64,000 nucleotides of DNA from NCBI GenBank assembly GCA_023410645.1, contig JAEYPQ010000040.1, positions 20,265-84,264 of the forward strand. The letters are read 5' to 3'. Shown piece by piece: positions 2,862 through 44,312 of the stretch (position 1 is its first letter; each line of letters opens with the position of its first letter). The notes beneath the pieces were generated by a model. It was not told the origin of the DNA. It saw only the letters and a program-made list of their open reading frames with translations, and ran no database searches. The stretch is from Bacillota bacterium (GTDB lineage Bacteria; Bacillota; Clostridia; TANB77; CAG-465). A program made the position numbers and the translations under genes.

Positions 2862-3299
2862 ATGGAAGAAAAAATTAAATTAATAAAAGAAGAAAATGAT
2901 TTTTTTAGGGAATGGATAATAAAAGAATGGAAACACCATAATACTGTAGATCAAATATATAAATTAAAAATAATAGATTCAAAAGAACTAAAGTTTGAAG
3001 AAAATGAACAATATTACAAAATAATGTATGAAGAAATTATGGTTGGTTTTATTGGTATAAAAGTATATGATAAAGAAATATACTTATATAGATTTTATGT
3101 AGATGAAGAATATAGAAATAAAGGTATTGGGACTATCGTATTAAATAAAATAATAAATATAGCAAAAAGTGATAATAAAGATATGACTTTGGAAGTTATA
3201 GGAGATAATATTGCAATAGATTTATATGAAAGATTTGGTTTTAAAACACATTATAAAAGAATGGTTCTAAAAATAAATAATAATTTATATAGTAATTAA
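2862..3299 (+). CDS. GNAT family N-acetyltransferase
   Basis: Acetyl-CoA-binding motif RNKGIGTIVLNKIINIAK (R-x-x-G-x-G). Confidence 0.7.
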   Translation: MEEKIKLIKEENDFFREWIIKEWKHHNTVDQIYKLKIIDSKELKFEENEQYYKIMYEEIMVGFIGIKVYDKEIYLYRFYVDEEYRNKGIGTIVLNKIINIAKSDNKDMTLEVIGDNIAIDLYERFGFKTHYKRMVLKINNNLYSN

Positions 3300-3499
3300 A
3301 AAAAATTTAAAAGATCAATATAAAAAAGTATTTATAGTGAAAAACTATAGATACTTTTTTAATATATTTAAAAATTATATTAACATTATTTAGTTATTTG
3401 TATAAATTAGAAGGTTTATTGTAAAAATAATATTAGAAATTTTACATAATATTTTATTATTAAACTTTATTATTAAATTTTATTTTTTTGTAAAAAACA

Positions 3500-3528
3500 T
3501 TGAAAAAAGTTATTAAAAAATATATAAT
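3500..3528 (+). promoter_or_regulatory. Sigma-A-type promoter (-35 TTGAAA, 17-nt spacer, -10 TATAAT)
   Basis: Hexamers read directly at 3500-3505 and 3523-3528, about 55 nt upstream of the ATG at 3585. Confidence 0.5.
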
Positions 3529-3584
3529 ATATTGTGTATATATACTAACTGGTAGTATATATTTTTAAAAAATAGGAGGCGTAT

Positions 3585-6371
3585 ATGGAAAAAAGAAGAG
3601 GAATTTCATTAATAGTTTTAGTCATAACTATAATTGTGATTATAATACTTGCAGGAGCAATAATACTAAATTTAAGTAAAAATAATCCAATTGAAAGTGC
3701 CAGAAAAGCAAAGTTTTTAAATGATATAGATACATTTAAAAGTGAATTATCATTATATGAATTAGGTAAAATGGCAAATACAAATGGAAACTATGATCCT
3801 AAATTATTAAATGCAGATAAAGATAATTTATTTGACGGAAGCACAGAAGCAGTACCGGATAAGAACATGACGGACGTAATAGAATCAATGAAGGATACAG
3901 GCTATGAAAATAAACTTGAGATTGTAGCTGGAGAATTAGTTTATGTAGGAGATAGCGAAAAAGAATCATCTTGGTGTGATGGAGTAATAGAATCTAAAGA
4001 TTTTAAATTAGATGTAACAGTAATACCAGATGTGACAAGTTTAAATGGAACAATAACTCTTACAGGAGCATTTGTTGATCCAAATAAGATAGAATATTAT
4101 AGAATATACATATCAGAAACAAGTGGAAATTATCCAGAGTCATATATTCAAGAGATAACTGAAAAAAGTGCAACAGTAAACTTTAGTATATCACAAGGAA
4201 TAGAAGCAAATAAAACATATTATATAAAAGTCGTAGTAAAAATGAATAATGTTGCAGATACAAGAGAAAAAGAAGTAAAAGTAGTATCTAACGTAGATAA
4301 TATAGCGCCAAATTCGGCCCAAATATCTGTACCAAGTTATTCAAACAATTTAATAATAACACCAGTAGCAATAACATTAAGTGATAATGATGGTGGAAGT
4401 GGAATAAATAAGACAGGAAGCATGTATGTGTTAGATCAAACATCAACAAGTTATTCAGAATCAGATACAGTATGGGATACAGCAACAACTTTTAATTCAA
4501 CGGATTTCGTGGGAAATGTAGCAACAATAGCAATTGAAGTACCAGGAGACGGTGAATATTATATACATGTATTAGCAGTAGATGGAGCAGGAAACAAAAA
4601 GTCAGCAACATCAGGGAAAATTATCGTTGATACAACTATTCCAAATGAACCTGCAATAACATTACCAAGTAATGCTGCAACAAGTAACATACAAGCCACA
4701 GTGGTAATGAGTGATAATACAAATGGAAGTGGACTTGATTTAAATCAATGTAAATATATATATTCAACAGCATCAACACCATATGGAGATACAGAGAATA
4801 TATGGAATACTGCAACAGCATTTACAAGTGCTACACAAACAATAACAGTTACATCAAGTACAAATGAGGTATATTATTTACATGTATTACTAGTAGATAA
4901 AGCAGGAAATAGAAGAGAAGTGTTATCTTCTGGTGTAACCACAAATACAGATGTTCCAGTAGCACCAGTAATAACCGGAACAGTATCGAGTAACGTATGG
5001 ACAAATCAGAATTCAGTTACACTAACAGTAAATGAAGTAACATCAACTGGAATAGTAAGATATGAGTATAATATAAATGATGGAGCTTGGCAAACATACA
5101 ATAGCACAAATAAAATAGTGGTGTCAACTGAAGGAACAACATATGTAAAAGCAAGGGCTGTAAATAATGTTGGAACAAATGGGGCAATTAGTACAGGATA
5201 TGTAGTAAGAATAGATAAAGTATCACCTACGATCACAGCATCAAGTGGAGGAAGTACTGCTTCTAGTGTAACGGTAATTGCAACAGCAAGTGACAGTGGA
5301 AGTGGAATAAATGGATCTAGTTATCAATATTCAAAGGATAATGGATCAACTTGGACAGGAGCAATTGGTTCAAATAGCTATACATTTAATAGTCTATCTA
5401 CAGGAACATATAATTGTAAAGTAATGGTATCGGATAATGCAGGAAATAGTACTATATCAAATACTATTTCAATAACAGCAATAGAGTATCCACAATCTAA
5501 TTCTCCAGGTACAGAAGAAACTCCAGGAACACCAAAAACAGAAAATACTACAATAAATGGTAAAACACCAACATATAATAATCCAGTAATACCAGCAGGA
5601 TTTAGTCCTGTAAATACTTCAACTGCTAGTTGGACTTTATCAGGAGGAATTCCACAAGGATGGAATAATGGGTTAGTAATACAAGATAATTATGGAAATC
5701 AGTTTGTATGGGTACCAGTAGATGGAGTAAATGTACCATATGCTAAATGGTGTACATCAGGTCAATCATATTTATACACAGTTGAAGGTACACTTCCAAC
5801 TGGATTTAGTGAAGATACAATAACTACTAAATATAAAGGATTTTATATAGCAAGATATGAAGCAAGTTATAATGGTGGAAAAGTAGCAAGTAAAAAAGGA
5901 AGTTCGTGGGTATATATAACTTTCTCAGATGCAAAAAATTACTGTGAAAGCATGTCAACTGGTTATGGATACAATACAGCACTGCTAGGAACAACAATAT
6001 TGACTGGAATACAATGGGATACTGTAATGAAATGGATAGAAAATTCTGGAATAAGTGTTACAAATAGTACATCATGGGGTAATTATTTCGATGCGTCATT
6101 TACATATACATATCCAGAAACAGGAAATAAACCTGATAATTCAAGTGCAATATTATATACAGGAGCAACAAGCAGAAATAGTGCAAAAAATATATATGAT
6201 TTAGCAGGAAATATGGAAGAATGGACAAATGAGAAATATTCAGGTGATTATGTTAGACGTGGTAGCCACTTCAACACTACCGGTTATGCATATCCAGCAG
6301 CTTATCGTACATCTTCTTTGATTGGTTCTAATGGTAGTGCCGGATTTAGACCAATGCTATATGTTAAATAA
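3585..6371 (+). CDS. Large modular surface protein. Type-IV-pilin-like N-terminal module lacking Glu5, then four tandem Ig-like repeats, then a C-terminal FGE-sulfatase/SUMF1-like domain.
   Basis: N-terminus KRRG|ISLIVLVITIIVIIILAGAII fits a class-III signal with Val in place of Glu5. Four ~95-aa repeats end in D-x-AGN. C-terminus has GNMEEWT...RGSHF...GFRP, which are FGE-sulfatase signatures. AGGAGG RBS. Confidence 0.75.
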   Translation: MEKRRGISLIVLVITIIVIIILAGAIILNLSKNNPIESARKAKFLNDIDTFKSELSLYELGKMANTNGNYDPKLLNADKDNLFDGSTEAVPDKNMTDVIESMKDTGYENKLEIVAGELVYVGDSEKESSWCDGVIESKDFKLDVTVIPDVTSLNGTITLTGAFVDPNKIEYYRIYISETSGNYPESYIQEITEKSATVNFSISQGIEANKTYYIKVVVKMNNVADTREKEVKVVSNVDNIAPNSAQISVPSYSNNLIITPVAITLSDNDGGSGINKTGSMYVLDQTSTSYSESDTVWDTATTFNSTDFVGNVATIAIEVPGDGEYYIHVLAVDGAGNKKSATSGKIIVDTTIPNEPAITLPSNAATSNIQATVVMSDNTNGSGLDLNQCKYIYSTASTPYGDTENIWNTATAFTSATQTITVTSSTNEVYYLHVLLVDKAGNRREVLSSGVTTNTDVPVAPVITGTVSSNVWTNQNSVTLTVNEVTSTGIVRYEYNINDGAWQTYNSTNKIVVSTEGTTYVKARAVNNVGTNGAISTGYVVRIDKVSPTITASSGGSTASSVTVIATASDSGSGINGSSYQYSKDNGSTWTGAIGSNSYTFNSLSTGTYNCKVMVSDNAGNSTISNTISITAIEYPQSNSPGTEETPGTPKTENTTINGKTPTYNNPVIPAGFSPVNTSTASWTLSGGIPQGWNNGLVIQDNYGNQFVWVPVDGVNVPYAKWCTSGQSYLYTVEGTLPTGFSEDTITTKYKGFYIARYEASYNGGKVASKKGSSWVYITFSDAKNYCESMSTGYGYNTALLGTTILTGIQWDTVMKWIENSGISVTNSTSWGNYFDASFTYTYPETGNKPDNSSAILYTGATSRNSAKNIYDLAGNMEEWTNEKYSGDYVRRGSHFNTTGYAYPAAYRTSSLIGSNGSAGFRPMLYVK

Positions 6372-6417
6372 TAAGTTGAAATAATATATAATTGAAGTAT
6401 CATAATAAATAAAATTT

Positions 6418-6458
6418 AAAATGGGTTTGATTTTTTATTAAGCCCATTTTATTTATTA
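6418..6458 (+). terminator. Rho-independent terminator
   Basis: Stem AAAATGGG / CCCATTTT followed by a T-rich tract, downstream of the 3585..6371 gene. Confidence 0.55.
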
Positions 6459-6644
6459 TATTAAATCTTAAAAAATCGTTATAAAACTTCTATTGATTAT
6501 TTAAAATCTTTATAATTAATGATATAATATGTTTGTTGAGAGATAAGATTTTTTTATTATTTGAGGATAAGAAAATTAAAATATATATGAGAAAATTTAG
6601 CATTTATGAGTAGACTTTTAAATAACATGAGGTGGATTTAAAAT

Positions 6645-7184
6645 ATGACAAATATATATGTAGTTAGACATGGACAGACTAATTGTAATAAGGAAAGTAA
6701 ATATAATTGTAGATATGACGAGGATATAAATGAAATAGGAATTGAACAGGCAAATAGTACTAGTGAACAAGTTAAGAAGTTAAATATTGATTTAATTATT
6801 TGTTCACCAATGAAAAGAACAAAACATACTATGAATTTATTAAATGTGAATAATATACCAGTAATTTATGATGATAGATTAATTGAAAGAGATGGGGGAA
6901 AGCTTACTTTAACAACTATTGATGAATATTATTATAAAGAATATTATAATTATTATTCCACTAAATTTGTTGATGGTCTTGAAACTTTACCAGAATTATT
7001 TAACAGGGTTCATTTATTTTTAGATGAAATTATAAAGAAATATAATAATAAGAATATATTATTAGTTACTCATGGAGCAGTAGCAAGAGCAATACAATTT
7101 TATTTTGAAGAAATACCGAATGATGGAATGCTTCTTAATGTAAGTGGACAAAAAAATTGCGAAATAAAGAAATATGAGGTGTAA
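6645..7184 (+). CDS. Histidine phosphatase family protein (phosphoglycerate-mutase-like)
   Basis: RHG motif at the N-terminus (VVRHGQT) and a TKHT region. GAGG RBS. Confidence 0.7.
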   Translation: MTNIYVVRHGQTNCNKESKYNCRYDEDINEIGIEQANSTSEQVKKLNIDLIICSPMKRTKHTMNLLNVNNIPVIYDDRLIERDGGKLTLTTIDEYYYKEYYNYYSTKFVDGLETLPELFNRVHLFLDEIIKKYNNKNILLVTHGAVARAIQFYFEEIPNDGMLLNVSGQKNCEIKKYEV

Positions 7185-16792: not shown

Positions 16793-19579
16793 ATGTGGAA
16801 TGTAAATGCAGTTAAGAAATCTTTATTTGATAAAAATATAGATTCCTCTACATATAATCCTAATATTGTAATCAATGAGCAAAGTAAAAATATAAAAGAT
16901 AAAATTAAAGAATTATTAAATAAATCTACTCGTGTGGACATTGCTGTTAGTTATGTAGTTTGGTCTGGATTATCTTTAATTTATGAAGATTTAAAAAAGT
17001 TTGATTCTAATAGTCGTTTAATACTAACAACAGAGGGGATGGTTACAGATCCTAGATCTTTAAATAAGTTAAATGAATTAAATATGGAAGTTAAGATTTA
17101 TATACCTAATGTGGATAGTAAAGGATTTCATTTAAAGACATATTTATTTGAAACTGATAATAATACAACATTATTAATAGGTAGTTCAAATATTTCTGCT
17201 CGCGCATTCGGTTTAGTACATGAAATGGTGGCAGAAATAAATGCAAAAAATGAAGGTTATATTATAGAAAAGTATAATAATACATTTAATGATCTTTGGA
17301 ATGATAAATGTTCAGAAGTATTAACTGAGGAATTTATTTACAATTATTCAAATATTTATACTCAAAATAAAAAAATTGAAATTAATGTTGCTAAGATGTT
17401 TTTAGAAGTAAAAAATATCAAACCGAATTATATGCAAGAGAGAGCTTTAGAAGCTTTAAAAGAGTGTAGGGAAGTGAGTAATAGAGGTTTAGTTATAGCA
17501 GCTACTGGTACTGGTAAAACATATTTATCTGCTTTTGATGTAAAAAATTGTAATGCAAAAAAGGTATTGTTTTTAGTTCATAACAGACTGATTTTAACAT
17601 CTGCTATAGAAACATATAAAAAAATATTTAAAAATAAAACTATGATAGAATTAGATTCAAACAATATGGAGAAAATTCATAATTTCGATTTCATTTTCAC
17701 AACTGATAAAACAGCATACAATAAACTTATAAGTAATATTCCAAATAATTACTTTGATTATATTATATATGATGAAGCTCATAAGATAGGATTTGATACA
17801 AAATATAGAGACATTATTGATTATTTTAATCCTAAATTTACTTTAGGTATAACTGCAACTCCTGAACGAACTGACAATCCTGATTATTTGTTCAAAATTT
17901 TTAAATATAATATTCCATATGAGATAAGGCTTTTAGATGCAATGAATCATGAATTGGTGTGTCCATTTACTTATTATGGTTTAAATTTAGAAAATAAATT
18001 ATTGAAAAGTAATGAAGAATTTAATTATGAAGAATTAGCAAAATATATTAAAAATACAATTGATAAAAAAGGCCATTATGGTGAAAAACTAAAATGTTTA
18101 GTTTTTTGTTCAAATATTAAAGAGGCAAATTCAGTTTCTTCACAATTAAATAATTTGGGATTTATATCTGTTAGTGCTGTTAGCGGTGAAAATGAATTAA
18201 CTAGAAGTGGTATAGAAAAATATATAATAGATTTAAAATCAGATGAAAAAGGAACTTTAGAAATAATATGTACTGTTAATAAATTTAATGAAGGTATTGA
18301 TATTCCTGATATTAATACAATAATTATGCTTAGAAACACAATATCTGCAATAATATATATTCAGCAATTAGGCCGTGGTTTAAGACGAACTGAGGACCCT
18401 CATAAGTATGTAACTGTTTTTGATATAATTGGTAATTCTAAAAATAATTATTCTATTGCTCAAGTATTAACTGGAAATACTACCGTTGATAAAAGAAAAC
18501 TATATATGTATGCTAATAAAGGATTTGAGACAGTTTCACCTTTTATTAATGTTGAAATAGAAAAAGAAGCAATGGAGAAGATAATTAGATCCATTTCAGT
18601 CAATTTTACAGTAAAGAATGAATTAATGGAAAAATTCAGAAATGAATTTTATAGGTTTGAAGTAATTCCTACTTTAAAAGAAATGTACTTAAATCCAAAT
18701 TTTAAAGAAATGGAATTATTACAATTATTGTTTAAAAATTTCTATGAACCTTTTAAAGAATATTATTTTAGAAAATATAACATTGAAAAAGAAAATAAAT
18801 TTTTGGATAATTTTTTTACGCTTATTACTCAATTTGTATTTAGAGGATACAATTCTGTAACATTACAGGAGTATGTTAAATTATTAAAAGGGGATAAAAT
18901 TCAAAATGATAAGTTAAGAAAAATATTACTCCCTTACGAGTTTGAAGATGGTATTTCAACTGCAATAAATAGTGAATACAACAAAAAGGGAAAAGAATTT
19001 CCAAAAATCTTTGAGTTTGAAAATGGATATTTAAAACTAAACAATGAAATCGTAATTTTATTGAAAAAATATAAAAGTATTGAATTATTTAATGAGCATA
19101 TAGAATTATTTGAGTATTTAGGTGAAAATAATGATTATACTATGAAATTATTTGATTTGGTAGATAAAGGTGAATTTTTATATAATCTTGACAGTAAAGA
19201 CTGCTATATGAATGTTACAGGTGAAAGAATAGATAAAGAAAAAAAGACTGTATATTGTATTGTTAAAGTTACTGAAAAAGAAACATTCTATGATAATTAC
19301 ATAGTGGATAATAATAAGATTATATATTATACAAAGGCTTCTAAAACCAAGGAAGCAGCATGTGAAAAAATAAGAGTGATTATTGAAGAGAATTATAAAT
19401 TTTATTTATGTGCACAATTTCCACATTTAGGTTATTCTAACACATCGTACTTTAATCTAGGTAATGTTAAGGTAAACAAAATTTCAGAAGTGCAAAAGGT
19501 AGATGATGGAAAATATAATCATAGAATAGAATTTATTGTAGAACGTGATATACCTTTTGAGTTGTTGCAATATAAATAG
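16793..19579 (+). CDS. SauUSI-like Type IV (modification-dependent) restriction endonuclease: PLD nuclease, SF2 helicase/ATPase, DUF3427-like C-terminal domain
   Basis: HKD motif GFHLKTYLF...LLIGSSNIS. Walker A AATGTGKT. DEAH box YDEAHK. Helicase motif VI QQLGRGLRR. Roughly 330-aa C-terminal extension. Single gene with its own GGAGG RBS. Confidence 0.65.
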   Translation: MWNVNAVKKSLFDKNIDSSTYNPNIVINEQSKNIKDKIKELLNKSTRVDIAVSYVVWSGLSLIYEDLKKFDSNSRLILTTEGMVTDPRSLNKLNELNMEVKIYIPNVDSKGFHLKTYLFETDNNTTLLIGSSNISARAFGLVHEMVAEINAKNEGYIIEKYNNTFNDLWNDKCSEVLTEEFIYNYSNIYTQNKKIEINVAKMFLEVKNIKPNYMQERALEALKECREVSNRGLVIAATGTGKTYLSAFDVKNCNAKKVLFLVHNRLILTSAIETYKKIFKNKTMIELDSNNMEKIHNFDFIFTTDKTAYNKLISNIPNNYFDYIIYDEAHKIGFDTKYRDIIDYFNPKFTLGITATPERTDNPDYLFKIFKYNIPYEIRLLDAMNHELVCPFTYYGLNLENKLLKSNEEFNYEELAKYIKNTIDKKGHYGEKLKCLVFCSNIKEANSVSSQLNNLGFISVSAVSGENELTRSGIEKYIIDLKSDEKGTLEIICTVNKFNEGIDIPDINTIIMLRNTISAIIYIQQLGRGLRRTEDPHKYVTVFDIIGNSKNNYSIAQVLTGNTTVDKRKLYMYANKGFETVSPFINVEIEKEAMEKIIRSISVNFTVKNELMEKFRNEFYRFEVIPTLKEMYLNPNFKEMELLQLLFKNFYEPFKEYYFRKYNIEKENKFLDNFFTLITQFVFRGYNSVTLQEYVKLLKGDKIQNDKLRKILLPYEFEDGISTAINSEYNKKGKEFPKIFEFENGYLKLNNEIVILLKKYKSIELFNEHIELFEYLGENNDYTMKLFDLVDKGEFLYNLDSKDCYMNVTGERIDKEKKTVYCIVKVTEKETFYDNYIVDNNKIIYYTKASKTKEAACEKIRVIIEENYKFYLCAQFPHLGYSNTSYFNLGNVKVNKISEVQKVDDGKYNHRIEFIVERDIPFELLQYK

Positions 19580-27600: not shown

Positions 27601-29460
27601 TTATAATTCAAGTTTTATATTGTATAATTCAAGCCACTTTTCAATTTGTATCAAAAATGCAAGTGTTTGAGGATATGTCATAAGTTGACCAAATAGATTT
27701 TCAGTTAAATTTTCTCCATGTATATTAATTAAGTCTCTCACAAAATTTTCATTTATTATTTCATGTATTTTTGAATTTTTATTATCTAATATACTTAACA
27801 TTCTTTCTTCAACCAATTTTAAATATTTTGGATCATAAGTCTTTGGAAATGGAGATTTCTTTCTATATATAACATCTTGTGGAAGCTCATTTTCAAAAGC
27901 TTTTCTAAGTAGATATTTTTCAACGGGTTCGTTATTTTTTGAAAGACCAAGTTTCATTCTTGCAGGCAAATTATATACATAATCGAAAATTCTATGATCT
28001 GCATATGGAACTCTAACTTCTAAAGAGTTAGCCATAGACATTCTATCAGTACGTTCAACAAGAGTATTCATAAACCATTTAACAGTGAGATAATTTATAT
28101 TTCTAAATCTATTTTCAAACTCATCATTTGAGTTTAAATGGGTTACATTTTTTAAAGTTTCTTGTCTTGCACTTTCAACATATTCTCTTAGTTCATTACT
28201 TTTAAGAATACCCTCTTTTATAAGATTATCTCTTAGATTTTCAGATAATGCCCATGGAAATCCATTGTGTGAGACAAGATGCTCTCTATAAAACCAAGGA
28301 TATCCACCAAAAATTTCATCAGAGCATTCTCCAGAAAGACATACTTTAAATCCATTTTCATTTATTTTTTTGCAAAATGCAAACATAGAACTATCTATGT
28401 CAGCCATTCCTGGCATGTCACGAGCGATCATTGATTCATCTAATAAATCAAATAAATATGTATTTTCAATTTGAATTGTTTTATGATTTGTTTTTAAGAA
28501 ATCTTTCATTATTTTCACATAATCACTATCTTTTGTGAGTTGATATGAATTTGATTTGAAATCTTGATCATTGCCAACAAAGTCAATTGAAAATGTTACA
28601 ATATTATCAATATTATCCTTTGCTACTTTTGTCAATATACTTGAATCAAGTCCACCAGATAGCATAGAACATATTCCAACATCAGATACGAGTTGTCTTT
28701 TGGCAGCATCATTTACAAGATAATGTATTTCTTCAATAGCTGTTTCCTCTGAATCCATGCATTCTCTTGTCTCTAAATCCCAGTATTTGTTTATGTCAAA
28801 AAAGCCATCTTTGTAAAATCCTGTGTATCCAGGTTTTATTTCTAAAATATTTTTAAAATATGTTTTCCCTGGACTGTGAGCAGGACCAAGTCCGATAAGT
28901 TCCATTAATCCCTGTTTGTCTAATGTCGGTTCAACATCAGGATGAGCAAGTATTGCTTTTATTTCAGATCCAAATATTAAAGTTGTATCATCACCTCTAC
29001 TAGAAATGGTATAAAATAAAGGCTTTATACCAAGTCGATCTCTTACAAAAAATAAAGATTTGTTATTTTTATCATATATTACAAAAGCAAATATACCATT
29101 TATGTATTCAACACATTTTTCACCGTATTCAATATAGCTTGTAAGTACTACCTCAGTATCACAACTAGTTGAAAAGCTATGTCCTTTAGAAATAAGTTCA
29201 TCTCTAAGTTCTTTCGTATTATACATCTCACCATTATATGCTATTGTATATTCATTTTCTTTAAAATTTTTGGTCATTGGCTGATGTCCAAGTGCCACGT
29301 CAATTATGCTAAGTCTTGCATGACCAATTGCAACATTATCATTTACATATATATTTTGTGCATTAGGACCTCTTTTTTTTAATCTATTATTCATATTTTC
29401 TATAACTTTTTCATCTGTTATATCTTTTTCAAAATTGACGTAACCACAAAAACCACACAT
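27601..29460 (-). CDS. asnB: Asparagine synthase (glutamine-hydrolysing)
   Basis: N-terminal MCGFCGY with the Cys2 nucleophile. SGGLDSS PP-loop motif. 619 aa. Confidence 0.9.
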   Translation of the reverse strand: MCGFCGYVNFEKDITDEKVIENMNNRLKKRGPNAQNIYVNDNVAIGHARLSIIDVALGHQPMTKNFKENEYTIAYNGEMYNTKELRDELISKGHSFSTSCDTEVVLTSYIEYGEKCVEYINGIFAFVIYDKNNKSLFFVRDRLGIKPLFYTISSRGDDTTLIFGSEIKAILAHPDVEPTLDKQGLMELIGLGPAHSPGKTYFKNILEIKPGYTGFYKDGFFDINKYWDLETRECMDSEETAIEEIHYLVNDAAKRQLVSDVGICSMLSGGLDSSILTKVAKDNIDNIVTFSIDFVGNDQDFKSNSYQLTKDSDYVKIMKDFLKTNHKTIQIENTYLFDLLDESMIARDMPGMADIDSSMFAFCKKINENGFKVCLSGECSDEIFGGYPWFYREHLVSHNGFPWALSENLRDNLIKEGILKSNELREYVESARQETLKNVTHLNSNDEFENRFRNINYLTVKWFMNTLVERTDRMSMANSLEVRVPYADHRIFDYVYNLPARMKLGLSKNNEPVEKYLLRKAFENELPQDVIYRKKSPFPKTYDPKYLKLVEERMLSILDNKNSKIHEIINENFVRDLINIHGENLTENLFGQLMTYPQTLAFLIQIEKWLELYNIKLEL

Positions 29461-29581
29461 AATATCACCTCATAAAATAAATTACTATAATTATATTATA
29501 TTTAAAAATAACTGATATGATACTAAGCTTTTAATAATAACTAGTAAAGTTACAAAAAATATGTGATATTATCATAAAATG

Positions 29582-29610
29582 TTGATATATGTCTTTTAAT
29601 ATTATATAAT
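29582..29610 (+). promoter_or_regulatory. Sigma-A-type promoter (-35 TTGATA, 17-nt spacer, -10 TATAAT)
   Basis: Hexamers read directly, about 50 nt upstream of the 29659 start. Confidence 0.5.
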
Positions 29611-29658
29611 TTAAATAATAAATTCAAAATGATTTTTGATATATTTTTGGGAGGATAT

Positions 29659-31317
29659 ATGAATAGAATTAAACAAAAGAAAGGAATTTCCTTAATAGTA
29701 CTAATAATAACAATTATAGTTATTATAATTTTGGCCGGTGCAATAATTTTAAATTTAACAAAAAATAATCCGATTGAATCTGCCAGAAAAGCAAAATTTG
29801 CAAGTAATATTGATCAATATGAAAGTGAACTTTTTATATGGGAATCAGGGGAAACTACAAAAACTAATGGAGAATTTGATCCAAGAGATTTAAATGCCGA
29901 TAAAGATGGAGGATCATATAAGGATTTAACAATTCAAGATATAATAACTTCAATGAATGATAATGATGCAAATAATTTTGAAATACAAGATGGAAAACTT
30001 GTATATGTAAATGAAGATAATAAACAAGAATATGAATGGGCAGATGAACTTGGAAAAACACCAGATTCAAATATTCCAACAGAACCAGAAAGAGTTGAAT
30101 CCACTTCTGATTTATGGGAGTTTGATCCGACAACTGGTACTATCATATCATACATAGGAGGTAGAACTGATAATCCATATGATAATAATATAGGAACTTT
30201 AGAAAGTATTACAATACCTAATTATGTGGATGGAGTAGCAGTAAAAAAATTGAGCAGAAGTACATTCAATAGTATACTGAAATTTGATATGACAGATGTA
30301 ACATCCTTAAAAACAGTAATTATATCTGATGGAATTGAAGAAATAGGAAACGGAGCATTTTATAATTGTCCTTCGATTACTAATGTAAAAATTCCTGATA
30401 GTGTTACAAAGATTGAATATAATGCCTTTGGAGGATGTATTAACTTGAAAGAAATAACTTTACCAAGTAATCTAGAAAATATTGGATATGCTGCATTTAG
30501 CGATTGTTCAAATCTAGAGAGTGTAAAAGTTTCAAATAAACAGTTAAATAGTGTTGTACCAGAAATTGTAGGTGGTGTAGATGAAAAAGCATTTACAAAT
30601 TGTGAAAAGTTAGTAAGTGTTGTGCTACCTGATAAATTGACAAGCATTGGCGATCATGCTTTTGCATATGCAACATCATTACAAAGTGTACATTTACCTA
30701 ATAATACAATAAGTATAGACTATGCTGCTTTTGATCAATGTAACGTATTATCAAATTTAACAATTCCTAGTAAAGTAACATCATTAAGCCAATATGCACT
30801 CACTGGTTGTTATGCTTTAAAAGATATAGTTTTAGCTAATGGTTTAGAAACAATAGGAGAGAATTGGTTTAGTAGTCTTTCTTATATAGAAAATGTTACA
30901 ATACCTAATACAGTTAAAACTATAGAATATAATGCATTTTATGCTTGTACTGGACTAAAAAATGTTATATTACCAGATAGTGTTACAACTATTGGAGATC
31001 AAGCATTTGCTAATTGTGGTGCATTAGAGAATATAAAATTATCTAGTAATTTAATAAGCATTGGGAGTGGAACTTTTTTAGCTTGTAAACTTACATCAAT
31101 AGAGTTACCAAATAAGTTAACAACAATTGGCTCAAATACTTTTTTAGGGTGTGAGCAATTAACAAGTATTACTATATCTAATAGTGTAACTTCAATTGGG
31201 GAAGGTGCATTTAATTATTGCACAAGACTTACAAGTATAACAATAAATAAACCAATTAATTCATTAACAGGTTCACCTTGGGGAGCACCAAGTGCAAATA
31301 TAAGTTGGATTGGCTAA
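29659..31317 (+). CDS. Modular surface protein: type-IV-pilin-like N-terminal module (paralogous to 3585..6371) plus BspA-type leucine-rich repeats
   Basis: Start reassigned to MNRIKQKKGISLIV... after a GGGAGG RBS. The N-terminal ~130 aa align with the 3585 protein (NNPIESARKAKF, NADKD, LVYV). The C-terminal ~20-23-aa LRR units (IP.SVT.IG..AF..C..L) are BspA/TpLRR-type. Confidence 0.75.
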   Translation: MNRIKQKKGISLIVLIITIIVIIILAGAIILNLTKNNPIESARKAKFASNIDQYESELFIWESGETTKTNGEFDPRDLNADKDGGSYKDLTIQDIITSMNDNDANNFEIQDGKLVYVNEDNKQEYEWADELGKTPDSNIPTEPERVESTSDLWEFDPTTGTIISYIGGRTDNPYDNNIGTLESITIPNYVDGVAVKKLSRSTFNSILKFDMTDVTSLKTVIISDGIEEIGNGAFYNCPSITNVKIPDSVTKIEYNAFGGCINLKEITLPSNLENIGYAAFSDCSNLESVKVSNKQLNSVVPEIVGGVDEKAFTNCEKLVSVVLPDKLTSIGDHAFAYATSLQSVHLPNNTISIDYAAFDQCNVLSNLTIPSKVTSLSQYALTGCYALKDIVLANGLETIGENWFSSLSYIENVTIPNTVKTIEYNAFYACTGLKNVILPDSVTTIGDQAFANCGALENIKLSSNLISIGSGTFLACKLTSIELPNKLTTIGSNTFLGCEQLTSITISNSVTSIGEGAFNYCTRLTSITINKPINSLTGSPWGAPSANISWIG

Positions 31318-31504
31318 ATAATAAAGATTAAAACTAATAATTGAATAGCCTAAGAATATATAATAGTATACTCTTAGGTTATTTTATATAAATTTAATAA
31401 TGATTGTAACTCTACTAATAGTGGAGTTATATATTCTACTATTAATGGGTGGAATATTTTAATACAAAATGTTATTATATATCTATGAAAGGATGTGTCT
31501 TCTT

Positions 31505-32368
31505 ATGGATCAAATAAAAATAGGTAAATTTATTGCCAGGCTTAGAAAAGGAAAAAATATGACCCAACAAAATTTGGCTGATAAATTAGGTGTTAGTTTT
31601 AAAACCATTTCAAAATGGGAAACTGGTAAAGGTATGCCAGACTTGTCAATATTACAAAAGTTATGTGAAGAATTAGGAATATCAATAAATGATTTACTTT
31701 ATGGTGATATAATAGATTCTAAGAATTTTAAAAAAGTTTCAGAAGAAAACTTAATAAATAATACTAAATTTATAACTAAGTTAAATTTAAAGAAAATATA
31801 TGTCAATTCGTTAACTTTTATGTATTTGTTAAGTATAGTAATTTGTTTAATATGTGATTTATCAATAAATAAAAAATTTACTTGGTTTCCAATTGTATTA
31901 GTATCAATAGCAATAGGATATTGCATAACAGTACTACCAATATTATTAAGAAAAAAAAGAAGTATAATAATTTTATCCATAGTAACAGTATTAACTTATT
32001 TATTAATTTATATAATATGTAGTTTTGTAAATGGAGATTGGCTTTGGAATATGGGTTATCCTATAGTGACTACAAGTTTTTTATTTATCTGGATGTTATA
32101 TTTAGTGTTTATTTTAAAAATAAAAACATTATTAAAAGTTTCATTTGGAACTTTAATAATAGGAACTTCAACTATCGTTATAAATTCACTAGTTAATTCA
32201 CACATAGAAGGTACTAGTATATTGAGTGAACTTTCTAGATACTTTACAAATGATAATGATATGAAGATAATTGGAAATAAGATTGCATTTTATTGTGCTT
32301 TAACTATCTTTATTTTTACATTTTTAGTACATGTATCAAGTGCTATATCAAAAAGAGAAAAAAATTAA
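31505..32368 (+). CDS. XRE-family HTH domain protein with a C-terminal multi-TM region
   Basis: HTH_3 region TQQNLADKLGVSFKTISKWETGKGMPDLSILQKLCEELGISINDLLYG, followed by about 6 hydrophobic helices. The start choice (31505 versus 31469 or 31493) is uncertain. Confidence 0.6.
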   Translation: MDQIKIGKFIARLRKGKNMTQQNLADKLGVSFKTISKWETGKGMPDLSILQKLCEELGISINDLLYGDIIDSKNFKKVSEENLINNTKFITKLNLKKIYVNSLTFMYLLSIVICLICDLSINKKFTWFPIVLVSIAIGYCITVLPILLRKKRSIIILSIVTVLTYLLIYIICSFVNGDWLWNMGYPIVTTSFLFIWMLYLVFILKIKTLLKVSFGTLIIGTSTIVINSLVNSHIEGTSILSELSRYFTNDNDMKIIGNKIAFYCALTIFIFTFLVHVSSAISKREKN

Positions 32369-42794: not shown

Positions 42795-44312
42795 ATGAAA
42801 CTAAGAAAACTAACTTTTAGTATGTTACTTTTAGTAGTTACACTATTAACTGTTAATTTTGTAAGTGCTGCTGAAAGTAATTTGACAATATCAGATATTA
42901 AATTTGATATTAAAAATACTGTAGATGGTGAATTTATTCTTAACTTTAAATCTAGTAAAGAGATAGACTTAAGCAAAGAAAATGCAAATATAAAAATTGA
43001 ATATTTTACTGAGGCAGAAAATGGTACTCTAATACCAATTAAAAATAAATTGGAAGATGATAGTCCACTAGTTAAAGATAAAACTTGGGCTGGGTATATT
43101 TGGACTGCAAGTGGTAGTTATTCAACAGGAACAGATGGATATGACCAATATTCTGATATAGTACCTGCAAATACAGAACTTGCAACTAAATTAAAAAGAG
43201 GGGTAGCTTCTGATGGAGATTCAATGAACTATATTGATATCGATTGGACTGATACAAGTGTAAAATATGTTGTTAAAATTACAATAACAGATGAATTTGG
43301 CAATGGTGAGAGTGTAATTGCAAAAAACTATACTGATGAAGTTGAGCGTACTCAAATCATTGGAGAAGAATATAGCATTTATGGATTTACAAATAACACT
43401 TCTCAAAAAGAATTTATTGAGGGAAAAGAAGCTGAATTTAATTTAGGAATATTAGCAAATACAATAAAAGAAAAGGGTTATGCTTCTGTTAAAATACTTG
43501 CTACAGTTACTAAACCAAATGGCGGAGAACTTAATATAACTGGAATTAATTCTAATCCATTTACATTAACTAAGGATTATAATGAAAGTAGTATAATTAA
43601 AGTTACACCTAATATATATGGTGAATATAAAATTAAATTTGACCTAGTAGATTTAAATAATAACTCTACAGTTATAGCTACACAAACAATAACTTTAGAT
43701 GTTAAAGAAAAATCAATTATTGAAAAGATTCAAGATTCCTCAAGTGACAAAAAAGCAGAAATTAATTTAATAAACACAACTGTTGTTACTGCACAAGCTT
43801 TTCAAGCAGCTAAAGAAAATGATGTTGATGTTACATTTAATGTAAAAAATGAAGATAAAGTAGTATATAGTTGGACTTTTGCAAGTAACGCAATAAATAA
43901 TGTTATTGATATTGATTTAGGACTTAATGTTGGTTCATCTGATAAGAAATCTGAAATTGAAAAAATAACAAAAAATGAGGATGTATTATATTTATCATTT
44001 ACTCATCATGGTGAATTGCCAGCACCTGCAACTATGAAAGTTTTTGTTGGTGATAAATATTCTGATGGAACAATAGTTAAGTTATATTATTATAATGAAG
44101 ATACTAATCAAGTTGAATTAATAAGTAAGGATATTGAAGTAAAAGATGGTTATGTTACTTTTACAATAGAACATTGTTCAGATTATTTCTTAGAGGAACA
44201 AGTTGCTTCAAATATAAATAATCCAGATACAGGAGATATAAATGTAATTGCACTTGGTTCAATTTCTATATTAAGTATTGCTGGAATAATATATCTAAAA
44301 TTTAAAAAATAA
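42795..44312 (+). CDS. Sortase-anchored surface protein with an NPDTG cell-wall sorting signal
   Basis: N-terminal signal peptide ending in VSA|AES. C-terminal NPDTG, then a hydrophobic segment, then KFKK. The class B sortase gene is adjacent. Confidence 0.75.
   Translation: MKLRKLTFSMLLLVVTLLTVNFVSAAESNLTISDIKFDIKNTVDGEFILNFKSSKEIDLSKENANIKIEYFTEAENGTLIPIKNKLEDDSPLVKDKTWAGYIWTASGSYSTGTDGYDQYSDIVPANTELATKLKRGVASDGDSMNYIDIDWTDTSVKYVVKITITDEFGNGESVIAKNYTDEVERTQIIGEEYSIYGFTNNTSQKEFIEGKEAEFNLGILANTIKEKGYASVKILATVTKPNGGELNITGINSNPFTLTKDYNESSIIKVTPNIYGEYKIKFDLVDLNNNSTVIATQTITLDVKEKSIIEKIQDSSSDKKAEINLINTTVVTAQAFQAAKENDVDVTFNVKNEDKVVYSWTFASNAINNVIDIDLGLNVGSSDKKSEIEKITKNEDVLYLSFTHHGELPAPATMKVFVGDKYSDGTIVKLYYYNEDTNQVELISKDIEVKDGYVTFTIEHCSDYFLEEQVASNINNPDTGDINVIALGSISILSIAGIIYLKFKK

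Follow-up and report, generated by a model that had tools for sequence, protein, structure and literature searches.

Two genes that lie far apart in one stretch of clostridial DNA encode proteins that begin alike and end in unrelated domains, and the question raised by this locus is what their common N-terminus does. The stretch, hereafter the window, comprises 64,000 nucleotides of a Bacillota bacterium (contig JAEYPQ010000040.1 of assembly GCA_023410645.1, positions 20,265 to 84,264 of the forward strand). Gene A (29659..31317) is a listed open reading frame (ORF) for a modular pilin-like protein of 552 amino acids (aa), made of an N-terminal module (N-module), a linker and BspA-type leucine-rich repeats (LRR). 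Gene B (3585..6371), also a listed ORF, encodes a modular pilin-like protein of 928 aa with an N-module, Ig-like repeats and an FGE-like domain; both genes, and all features given below for them, are on the + strand. On the basis of sequence comparisons, we consider with a probability of roughly 60% that A and B are modular pilin-like surface proteins, in which the N-module would be a pilin-type carrier displaying the C-terminal domain as its cargo.

One N-module in two different proteins

A first-pass annotation of this DNA had proposed that about 130 N-terminal residues of A and B align closely while the C-terminal parts are unrelated, and had taken a likeness confined to the hydrophobic helix as the sign of a generic signal-anchor. 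In BLASTP, protein A (read from the ATG at 29659) and protein B shared 76 identities over 140 positions (54%, E 7e-24, residues 4-136 of A and 1-139 of B), and outside the N-terminal module no further significant segment was found. A transmembrane segment of low complexity, rich in I, L and V, can inflate such scores. With the leader and the hydrophobic helix removed (A 40-143 against B 37-144), 47 of 104 residues were still identical (45%, E 2e-23), which argues that the likeness exceeds that of a generic signal-anchor and that the N-module, judged from these alignments, is a real homologous domain. At the DNA level the two modules agree in 81% of positions, many of the differences being synonymous, and their upstream regions show no relationship, which points to old paralogs that would be under purifying selection. 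A recent gene conversion between A and B was ruled out by the synonymous divergence. This divergence, the identity persisting outside the helix and a family that counts 398 cluster representatives at E ≤ 1e-30 and 2,862 at E ≤ 1e-10 all stand against a trivial likeness, in which a generic signal-anchor or a recent local duplication would have no meaning at the family level; we consider it essentially excluded, with next to no probability left to it. A six-frame motif scan of the window found the module in two copies only, those of A and B, whose start codons are separated by 26,074 nt, in line with the 26 kb first estimated.

The residue numbering used here depends on the start of gene A. A longer reading of this gene, beginning MIFDIF at 29629, has no ribosome binding site (RBS), while the ATG at 29659 is preceded at 4 nt by GGGAGG (29649..29654, direct sequence reading) and gives a 9-residue basic leader that fits the family, in which the median leader has 7 residues. 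Moreover, protein A is recorded in its 552-aa form in two public assemblies of the contig (including Logan SRR13358440). The preference of the first-pass annotation for 29659 over MIFDIF was well founded, and this ATG is, on the sequence signals, the correct start. In gene B, the RBS AGGAGG (3574..3579, also by direct reading) lies 5 nt before the ATG at 3585, and the exact protein B sequence is present in ENA and NCBI assemblies.

In protein A, the short and basic leader MNRIKQKKG (29659..29685) ends in the family-invariant Gly at -1, with a putative prepilin-peptidase site between Gly9 and Ile10. It is followed by alpha-1 (residues 10-68, 29686..29862), which is near-invariant in the family and consists of a 26-residue hydrophobic alpha1-N (ISLIVLIITIIVIIILAGAIILNL), an NNP kink and an amphipathic alpha1-C, and then by a small globular head (residues 69-135, 29863..30063), whose motifs FDP..LNAD, IPS, GKLVY and E.W are kept in the modular subfamily. 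AlphaFold2 modelling of residues 1-143 of A with a 41-sequence alignment gave a mean confidence score (pLDDT) of 88.6, with helices at 10-35 and 38-68 (pLDDT 92-97) and with two short beta-hairpins and a helix at 122-130 (pLDDT >90) packed as a small head. The pLDDT falls after residue 130, and the translation then reads as a Pro/Glu/Ser/Thr-rich linker (residues ~136-165, 30064..30153). The cargo of A (residues ~166-552, about 390 residues, 30154..31314) is of BspA-type LRR, as indicated both by Pfam (LRR_5 with E 5.2e-89 and 295.1 bits against a cutoff of 27.7 in 3 stretches, plus LRR_EndoS at 198-293 and LRR_8) and by sequence matches in PDB: 4fs7 (4.7e-53), 4gt6 'cell surface protein', PcpA (4cp6) and TpLRR (6mlx).

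Protein B carries its N-module in residues 1-139 (3585..4001), delimited by BLASTP against A and composed of the leader MEKRRG, alpha-1 and head. The Ig-like repeat region that follows (residues ~140-640, about 500 residues, 4002..5504) matches Pfam Big_3_2 with 27.9 bits, over the cutoff, and an OmpL47-type domain with E 1.2e-13, likewise over threshold, while PKD_4, Big_13 and Y_Y_Y stayed under their cutoffs; a region homologous to it is found in 18 family ORFs of other genomes. The C-terminal FGE-sulfatase-like domain (residues ~641-928, 5505..6368) reaches 20.3 bits against PF03781 (FGE-sulfatase), below the cutoff of 23.3 and over profile positions 94-195 only, and has no sequence match in PDB, and should be called 'FGE-like' on this evidence. 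The Pfam scan therefore upholds the distinction first drawn between LRR in A and Ig repeats with FGE in B, the FGE part being weak.

Neither A (ending ..PSANISWIG) nor B (ending ..GFRPMLYVK) carries an LPXTG-type or other C-terminal anchor. The window itself encodes, at 42795-44312 (+ strand), a 505-aa protein with a Sec signal (MKLRKLTFSMLLLVVTLLTVNFVSA/AE, the slash marking here and below the putative cut) and a C-terminal NPDTG followed by a hydrophobic segment and KFKK; no Pfam match is on record for it. This gene is adjoined by a sortase gene (PF04203, 44374-45186, - strand), and the two look like a classical sortase-substrate pair. The organism thus appears to have ordinary sortase anchoring, yet A and B, being without such an anchor, would use a distinct targeting device, namely the N-terminus GISLIV, as we call it after the Gly at -1 and the residues that follow.

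The N-module and type IV pili

We compared this N-terminus with that of canonical type IV pilins. The logo of 339 non-identical sequences, otherwise <40% identical, reads K(-3), K/R(-2), G(-1), then I S L I V L [VI] I T I I V I I I L A, with NNP at +27 to +29; K is found in 75% of them at -3 and K/R in 78% at -2. Gly(-1) and Thr(+9) were imposed in this set by the selection pattern, and both (the Gly being G9 of A) are also invariant in the independent 41-sequence alignment. The leaders of A (MNRIKQKKG/) and B (MEKRRG/) are basic and end in Gly, as in class III signals, and the hydrophobic stretch after the Gly, which in pilins takes about 20 residues or more and half of an alpha-1 of about 50, has 26 residues here. 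A near-invariant helix with a Gly at its boundary is what prepilin-peptidase recognition and packing in a filament core would demand, and a simple anchor would not need it.

The same features invite a comparison with an ordinary Sec signal peptide, cut by signal peptidase I (for example after LAGA), in which case A and B would be soluble secreted proteins. A basic n-region followed by a hydrophobic stretch is indeed present, and residues 26-28 of A read 'AGA', similar to A-x-A. However, the hydrophobic run of 26 residues is twice that of the genuine Sec signal of the window (MKLRKLTFSMLLLVVTLLTVNFVSA/AE), logo positions 18 and 19 vary (A/G/V/S and A/V/T/I) with A-x-A not conserved, and the putative site would fall inside the helix with hydrophobic residues after it, where AlphaFold2 gives one continuous helix from 10 to 35. 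We regard a Sec-type cleaved signal as very improbable and, like the trivial likeness above, as essentially excluded.

The reading of the N-module as a pilin-type carrier finds support in related genomes, where short paralogs with the same N-terminal helix are encoded in type IV pilus gene clusters. Three of them (P0106, P0108 and P0090, 135-156 aa) match the first ~60 module residues only and lie inside clusters in which a PilM/N-like gene is followed by three small membrane proteins, one to three GISLIV proteins, a PF06750 (PilD N-domain) protein, two small pilin-like proteins, PilB (T2SSE+MshEN), PilT and PilC (T2SSF). Three further clusters (L084, L085/L086 and L087) have the same layout. 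In five distinct clusters of other genomes, genes for 119-179 aa at the (major-)pilin position begin MK.KKGISLIVLVITIIVIIILAGAVIL, and these short paralogs share their first ~45 residues with the long modular members. Two of the five clusters are on the same contig as a long modular member: on contig JAOAHC010000001.1 a cluster and a 701-aa Ig/ALK_LTK_GRD member are ~20 kb apart, and at L087 a member of ~910 aa with RCC1 cargo lies 3.8 kb after pilC. In addition, assembly JAQUWH01 holds the L003 cluster and eight modular copies (L047, L056, L066). The proposed pilus link thus rests on the first ~45-60 residues (alpha-1) and on gene context in related metagenome-assembled genomes (MAGs). An AlphaFold2 model of the short pilin P0106, built on an 11-sequence alignment, had pLDDT 47 and was discarded.

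The gene that takes the place of a prepilin peptidase in these clusters is peculiar. It matches PF06750, the PilD N-terminal domain, and nothing more (E 1.3e-31), and such PF06750-only genes are at 11579-12403 of L001, 10606-11418 of L003, 10001-10804 of both L084 and L085, and 10001-10819 of L087. Where the A24 catalytic domain should begin, the PilD homologue runs into ..KSKSG/VFILEILIAIV.. (KSG/VF[IV].E..), which reads as a class III-like signal that has Glu5 and leads into a domain the size of a pilin. This fusion is conserved, with 1,760 homologues, the best 120 of which are all ~265 aa long and PF06750-only, and some are named 'prepilin peptidase' or 'PppA' in databases. Three of the fusion proteins were traced, one to the unrelated MAG GCA_026415435.1 and two to a sister sample from one and the same study (ERZ27268983 / SRR13358388), and none of these came from the sample of the window.

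Several results weigh against a pilin-type carrier. Glu5 is the hallmark of assembling pilins, and position +5 is Val in A and B; among the 339 sequences it is Val in 93%, T in 4% and I in 1%, and never Glu. The short cluster-encoded pilins likewise lack Glu5. A and B gave no match to PF07963 at E ≤ 10 nor to TIGR02532 at E ≤ 0.1, and neither model matched any of the 125 relatives scanned. The likeness to the cluster-encoded pilins covers alpha-1 only, 40-51% of the query. No pilus genes are present in the window or its known flanks, and 73 of the 74 loci retained from GTDB genomes have no pilus machinery within 10 kb, the exception (L029) showing one weak ATPase-like match. Furthermore, dozens of bulky cargo proteins per genome are far above what is found in any characterised pilus. 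Finally, the cluster PilD homologues have no match to the PF01478 catalytic domain, so that a peptidase for the GISLIV leaders was not found among the genes of these clusters.

Two weak matches were seen as well. A reached E 0.055 against the archaeal Pilin_N model of Pfam, which is non-significant, and B had no such match. The best PDB match of the module profile was Geobacter PilA-N, which at a non-significant E of 0.22 is a hint only; its alignment is in register, with Gly-1 facing Gly-1 and Val5 facing Glu5. Taken together, the module looks like a non-canonical type IV pilin module, which departs from the canonical one in Glu5 and the signature models and agrees with it in leader and Gly and in alpha-1. 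An association with pilus genes is seen for its short paralogs in five clusters of other genomes and not in the window. The term pilin-like, already used for these proteins by the first-pass annotation, is supported by the paralogs in pilus clusters and not by the canonical signatures.

Part of these results would also follow if the module was a pilin-derived membrane anchor and stalk that enters no filament, either uncleaved or with a trimmed leader, and that holds the cargo on the surface independently of pili. The missing Glu5 and the missing peptidase catalytic domain in the pilus clusters fit such an anchor. Long members in other genomes are mostly scattered away from the pilus clusters, often as tandem groups of 2-5; at least 26 copies in one MAG and cargo of up to 3,485 aa are hard to imagine on a single pilus, and each window gene has a promoter-like site of its own. 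On the contrary, an anchor leaves unexplained the near-invariance of 25 hydrophobic residues and Gly-1 in proteins that are <40% identical, for which the synonymous divergence indicates selection and not recent copying, as well as the helix identity with the pilin genes of five pilus clusters. We consider a pilus-independent anchor rather unlikely, yet the main rival of the carrier.

If the N-module is a pilin-type carrier, as we favor, the following steps can be proposed. The protein would be inserted in the membrane N-in by its N-module, leaving the cargo on the outer side, and a prepilin-type peptidase would remove the leader after Gly9 in A and Gly6 in B. Alpha1-N, nearly identical to that of the short pilins of the clade, would then let the protein dock into a type IV pilus or prime its tip. 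The pilus would take the cargo across the wall to some distance from the cell, and ligand binding would take place there. The characterised modular pilins PilB and PilC of Streptococcus sanguinis work in this way (PMC8179133, PMC9934059). The displayed cargo would be the LRR in A, and an Ig stalk with a lectin-fold FGE-like domain in B. Leader cleavage, filament incorporation, tip location and adhesion are what we infer for A and B, and the label 'adhesin' given to them at first is to be taken in the same sense. Considering that the short cluster pilins are also without Glu5, the absence of this residue alone cannot place A and B at the tip.

A wider proposal, which we put forward tentatively and hold to be possible rather than probable, is that bacterial type IV pilins have a Glu5-less branch, so far unrecognised, which is marked by the GISLIV module of uncultured gut Clostridia. 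Such a branch would have a pilus driven by PilB, PilT and PilC whose major pilin lacks Glu5, a PilD homologue that has lost its peptidase domain and gained a Glu5-containing pilin domain, and an alpha-1 serving as a universal adaptor that loads tens of cargos per genome (LRR, lectin-fold, MucBP, RCC1, dockerin and others). If true, the filament would amount to a programmable display pilus, assembled by a chemistry unlike the salt bridge between Glu5 and the N-terminal amine.

Family size, cargo and genomic surroundings

To the pair in the window can be added a large family. Of 166 relatives that a word-indexed search with the module gave, nearly all are unnamed proteins of uncultured Clostridia, and an exhaustive profile search over 1.84 billion cluster representatives (clusters at fifty-percent identity) gave 15,511 of them at E 1e-3, 2,862 at 1e-10 and 398 at 1e-30. 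For a family imagined from its K-G-I-S-L-I-V start, this means 2,862 cluster representatives at E ≤ 1e-10, with two members in the window. In the best 150 profile matches the module occupies residues 1 to ~145 of proteins that are mostly 300-730 aa long, and most family members have 300-1,200 aa. A scan of GTDB species genomes gave at least 281 confirmed sites, and the retained loci (74 of 74) belong to MAGs of uncultured gut Clostridia/Bacillota from human (Hadza), chicken, rabbit, sheep and buffalo. The 134 family ORFs of these loci have a median length of 437 aa, the longest reaching 3,485 aa, and are often grouped in tandem, 2-5 at a time; MAG JAQUGQ01 has at least 26 copies and CAKPEI01 at least 17.

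The cargo is diverse, which bears out the modular family with swappable C-terminal parts proposed by the first-pass annotation. A Pfam scan of 125 close cluster representatives found LRR_5 in 39, FGE-sulfatase in 6 and MucBP in 5, and ALK_LTK_GRD, DUF285, cadherin-like, dockerin, Laminin_G_3, fn3 and PKD in one or two each. Other members carry RCC1, GLUG, F5/8-type-C (discoidin), GBS_Bsp-like and Bact_surface_Ig-like domains, and the cargo on relatives spans 18 or more Pfam families. The FGE-like domain of B is the commonest cargo of the GTDB loci, found by phmmer in 40 of the 134 ORFs. Swappable cargo on a constant N-module is, as read from these domain assignments, a fact at the family level. 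A cargo swap at an orthologous site was not found among the loci compared, for which synteny was partial only; L029 keeps a B-like order, a glycosyltransferase and then a family gene, with the same FGE-like cargo. As the module had no tblastn match in PLSDB plasmids or INPHARED phages, there is no sign of an origin from mobile elements. In databases the members are called 'hypothetical' and once 'pseudopilin PulG', and a literature search for the motif strings and for pilin, BspA and Clostridia together found no paper describing them; the family is unannotated.

Some members deserve mention for their own sake. At L017, L018, L019, L023, L025 and L027 of MAG JAQUGQ01, family genes of ~400-600 aa whose N-modules are near-identical stand in tandem, 2-5 to an array, and arrays of the same kind are found at L055, L064, L066 and L056; many genes of these arrays have FGE-like cargo. 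This suggests local amplification and diversification, as in contingency loci. Many members of ~200-220 aa consist of N-module and type I dockerin (PF00404) only (P0014, P0015, P0023, P0029, P0031, P0037, P0039, P0044-P0057 and P0084), and would attach partners that have cohesins to the structure, whatever it is, that the module enters. In P0009, the leader MKALQSLAGVHTHTHTHTHTHRG/ISLIV.. has a run of His and Thr before the Gly. The DNA just upstream of this Gly would accordingly be a dinucleotide repeat of (CA)n type, which might be a slipped-strand on/off switch; the P0009 contig is labelled Myroides sp., probably by a binning error. P0074 and P0087 were rejected as complete stand-alone small pilins, an ORF of 215-225 aa following each within 6 nt or overlapping it, and are probably modular genes that have been split. 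The apparent stand-alone N-modules of 125 aa (L082 10001-11010) and 134 aa (L083 10001-11088) have ORFs of 215-225 aa without Pfam matches that overlap them or follow after a 5-nt gap. These are probably modular genes broken by a frameshift or a split, if they do not come from assembly errors.

In the window, expression signals could be read for both genes. The promoter-like site of gene A (TTGATA-17 nt-TATAAT, 29582..29610) has the top score (11/12) within 29300-31600, that of gene B (TTGAAA-17 nt-TATAAT, 3500..3528) the top score (11/12) within 3200-6700, and both are ~50 nt upstream of their genes. Because the counts of such sites around A and B were in no excess over shuffled controls (25% GC DNA), the promoters are plausible rather than proven; from the initial claim of near-consensus sigma-A promoters and strong RBSs, the RBSs and the presence of the sites stand, and the promoters keep this lower rank. 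After gene B, a terminator-like hairpin with T-run (6417..6451) has a 15-pair stem with 3 GC pairs only and is weak, 1 site being found against 0.7 expected.

The window has a GC content of 25.2%, and its housekeeping and sporulation genes (uvrB, addA, asnB, yabP/yabQ, spoIIR and gatCAB) are those of an organism of Clostridia type. It matches a 64-kb Logan contig and 89-kb ENA/NCBI contigs, which come from metagenomes of gut type. Directly 3' of gene A, 31469-32368 (+ strand) encodes a protein of 287-299 aa with an N-terminal XRE-type HTH and about six hydrophobic segments, which could be a membrane-tethered regulator. Another ORF of 928 aa (16793-19579, + strand) equals protein B in length by coincidence and is unrelated to it. 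By eye, it shows a PLD-type nuclease motif (GFHLKTYLF) and then a DEAH helicase (ATGTGKT .. YDEAHK), and it might be a defence or repair nuclease-helicase.

Comparison with known systems

Modular type IV pilins have been described in S. sanguinis, where PilB combines a pilin with a vWA domain and PilC a pilin with a lectin domain (Raynaud et al. 2021, PMC8179133; PMC9934059). A, B and their relatives have the same design: a short linker connects a small N-terminal pilin-like module with a large binding domain that has no specificity for pili, and the host is monoderm. On the contrary, in S. sanguinis PilB and PilC the class III signal is canonical and includes Glu5 (IPR012902), whereas the module of A and B has Val5 and escapes all signature models. 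The former have their genes, two to a genome, within the pil operon, and the GISLIV genes are scattered, with tens per genome. Moreover, the GISLIV module has a conserved head domain of its own.

The entries IPR026906 and IPR005532 we take to stand for the BspA-LRR and FGE-sulfatase domains. Both are found on canonical pilins in Dataset S1 of PMC8179133, as IPR012902-IPR026906 (18+6 proteins) and IPR012902-IPR005532 (8) fusions. The census of modular pilins from which these come counts about 1,200 proteins and was based on the canonical IPR012902 motif (PMC8179133), which A and B do not carry, so that the present family is invisible to it.

Pilins without Glu5 are known at the tip of filaments, such as GspK/PilK of the HIJK complex and S. 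sanguinis PilA (PMC9934059, PMC10191384). There, the absence of Glu5 is thought to mark a tip-capping subunit, since no subunit above it needs charge neutralisation (PMC9934059, PMC10191384). In those systems a single subunit is without Glu5 and the major pilin keeps it, whereas here the short cluster pilins lack it too.

Another likeness is offered by archaeal proteins with class III signals (the bindosome, and pilins of PF07790), in which many different extracellular proteins have a pilin-type N-terminus without Glu5, as in the GISLIV family. The sugar-binding proteins of the Sulfolobus bindosome have class III signals and are what a pilus-independent GISLIV anchor would be similar to, and this archaeal system works with PibD and Bas proteins. 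With respect to cargo, that of A is a bona fide member of the BspA/TpLRR/PcpA-type LRR proteins (PF13306). These have Sec signals combined with por-secretion, choline-binding or lipid anchors and are not known to be anchored by a pilin-like N-module such as that of A. Sortase-anchored adhesins of LPXTG type have a C-terminal motif, a hydrophobic segment and a basic tail, none of which is present in A or B.

Modular pilins are the current explanation for many functions gained by simple type IV pili, and the GISLIV family is larger than their IPR012902-based census, is concentrated in abundant uncultured gut Clostridia and carries host- and glycan-binding domain types. If the module loads its cargo onto pili, the family would amount to a major set of gut-bacterial adhesins that has so far gone unannotated, a natural example of Glu5-free pilus assembly and a ready-made scaffold for surface display. 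At the least, the signature K-K-G/ISLIVL.ITIIVIIILA...NNP turns thousands of 'hypothetical proteins' into recognisable surface proteins. In conclusion, compared with the systems described so far, the modular-pilin design was already known, and what is new is its Glu5-less pilin-like carrier module.

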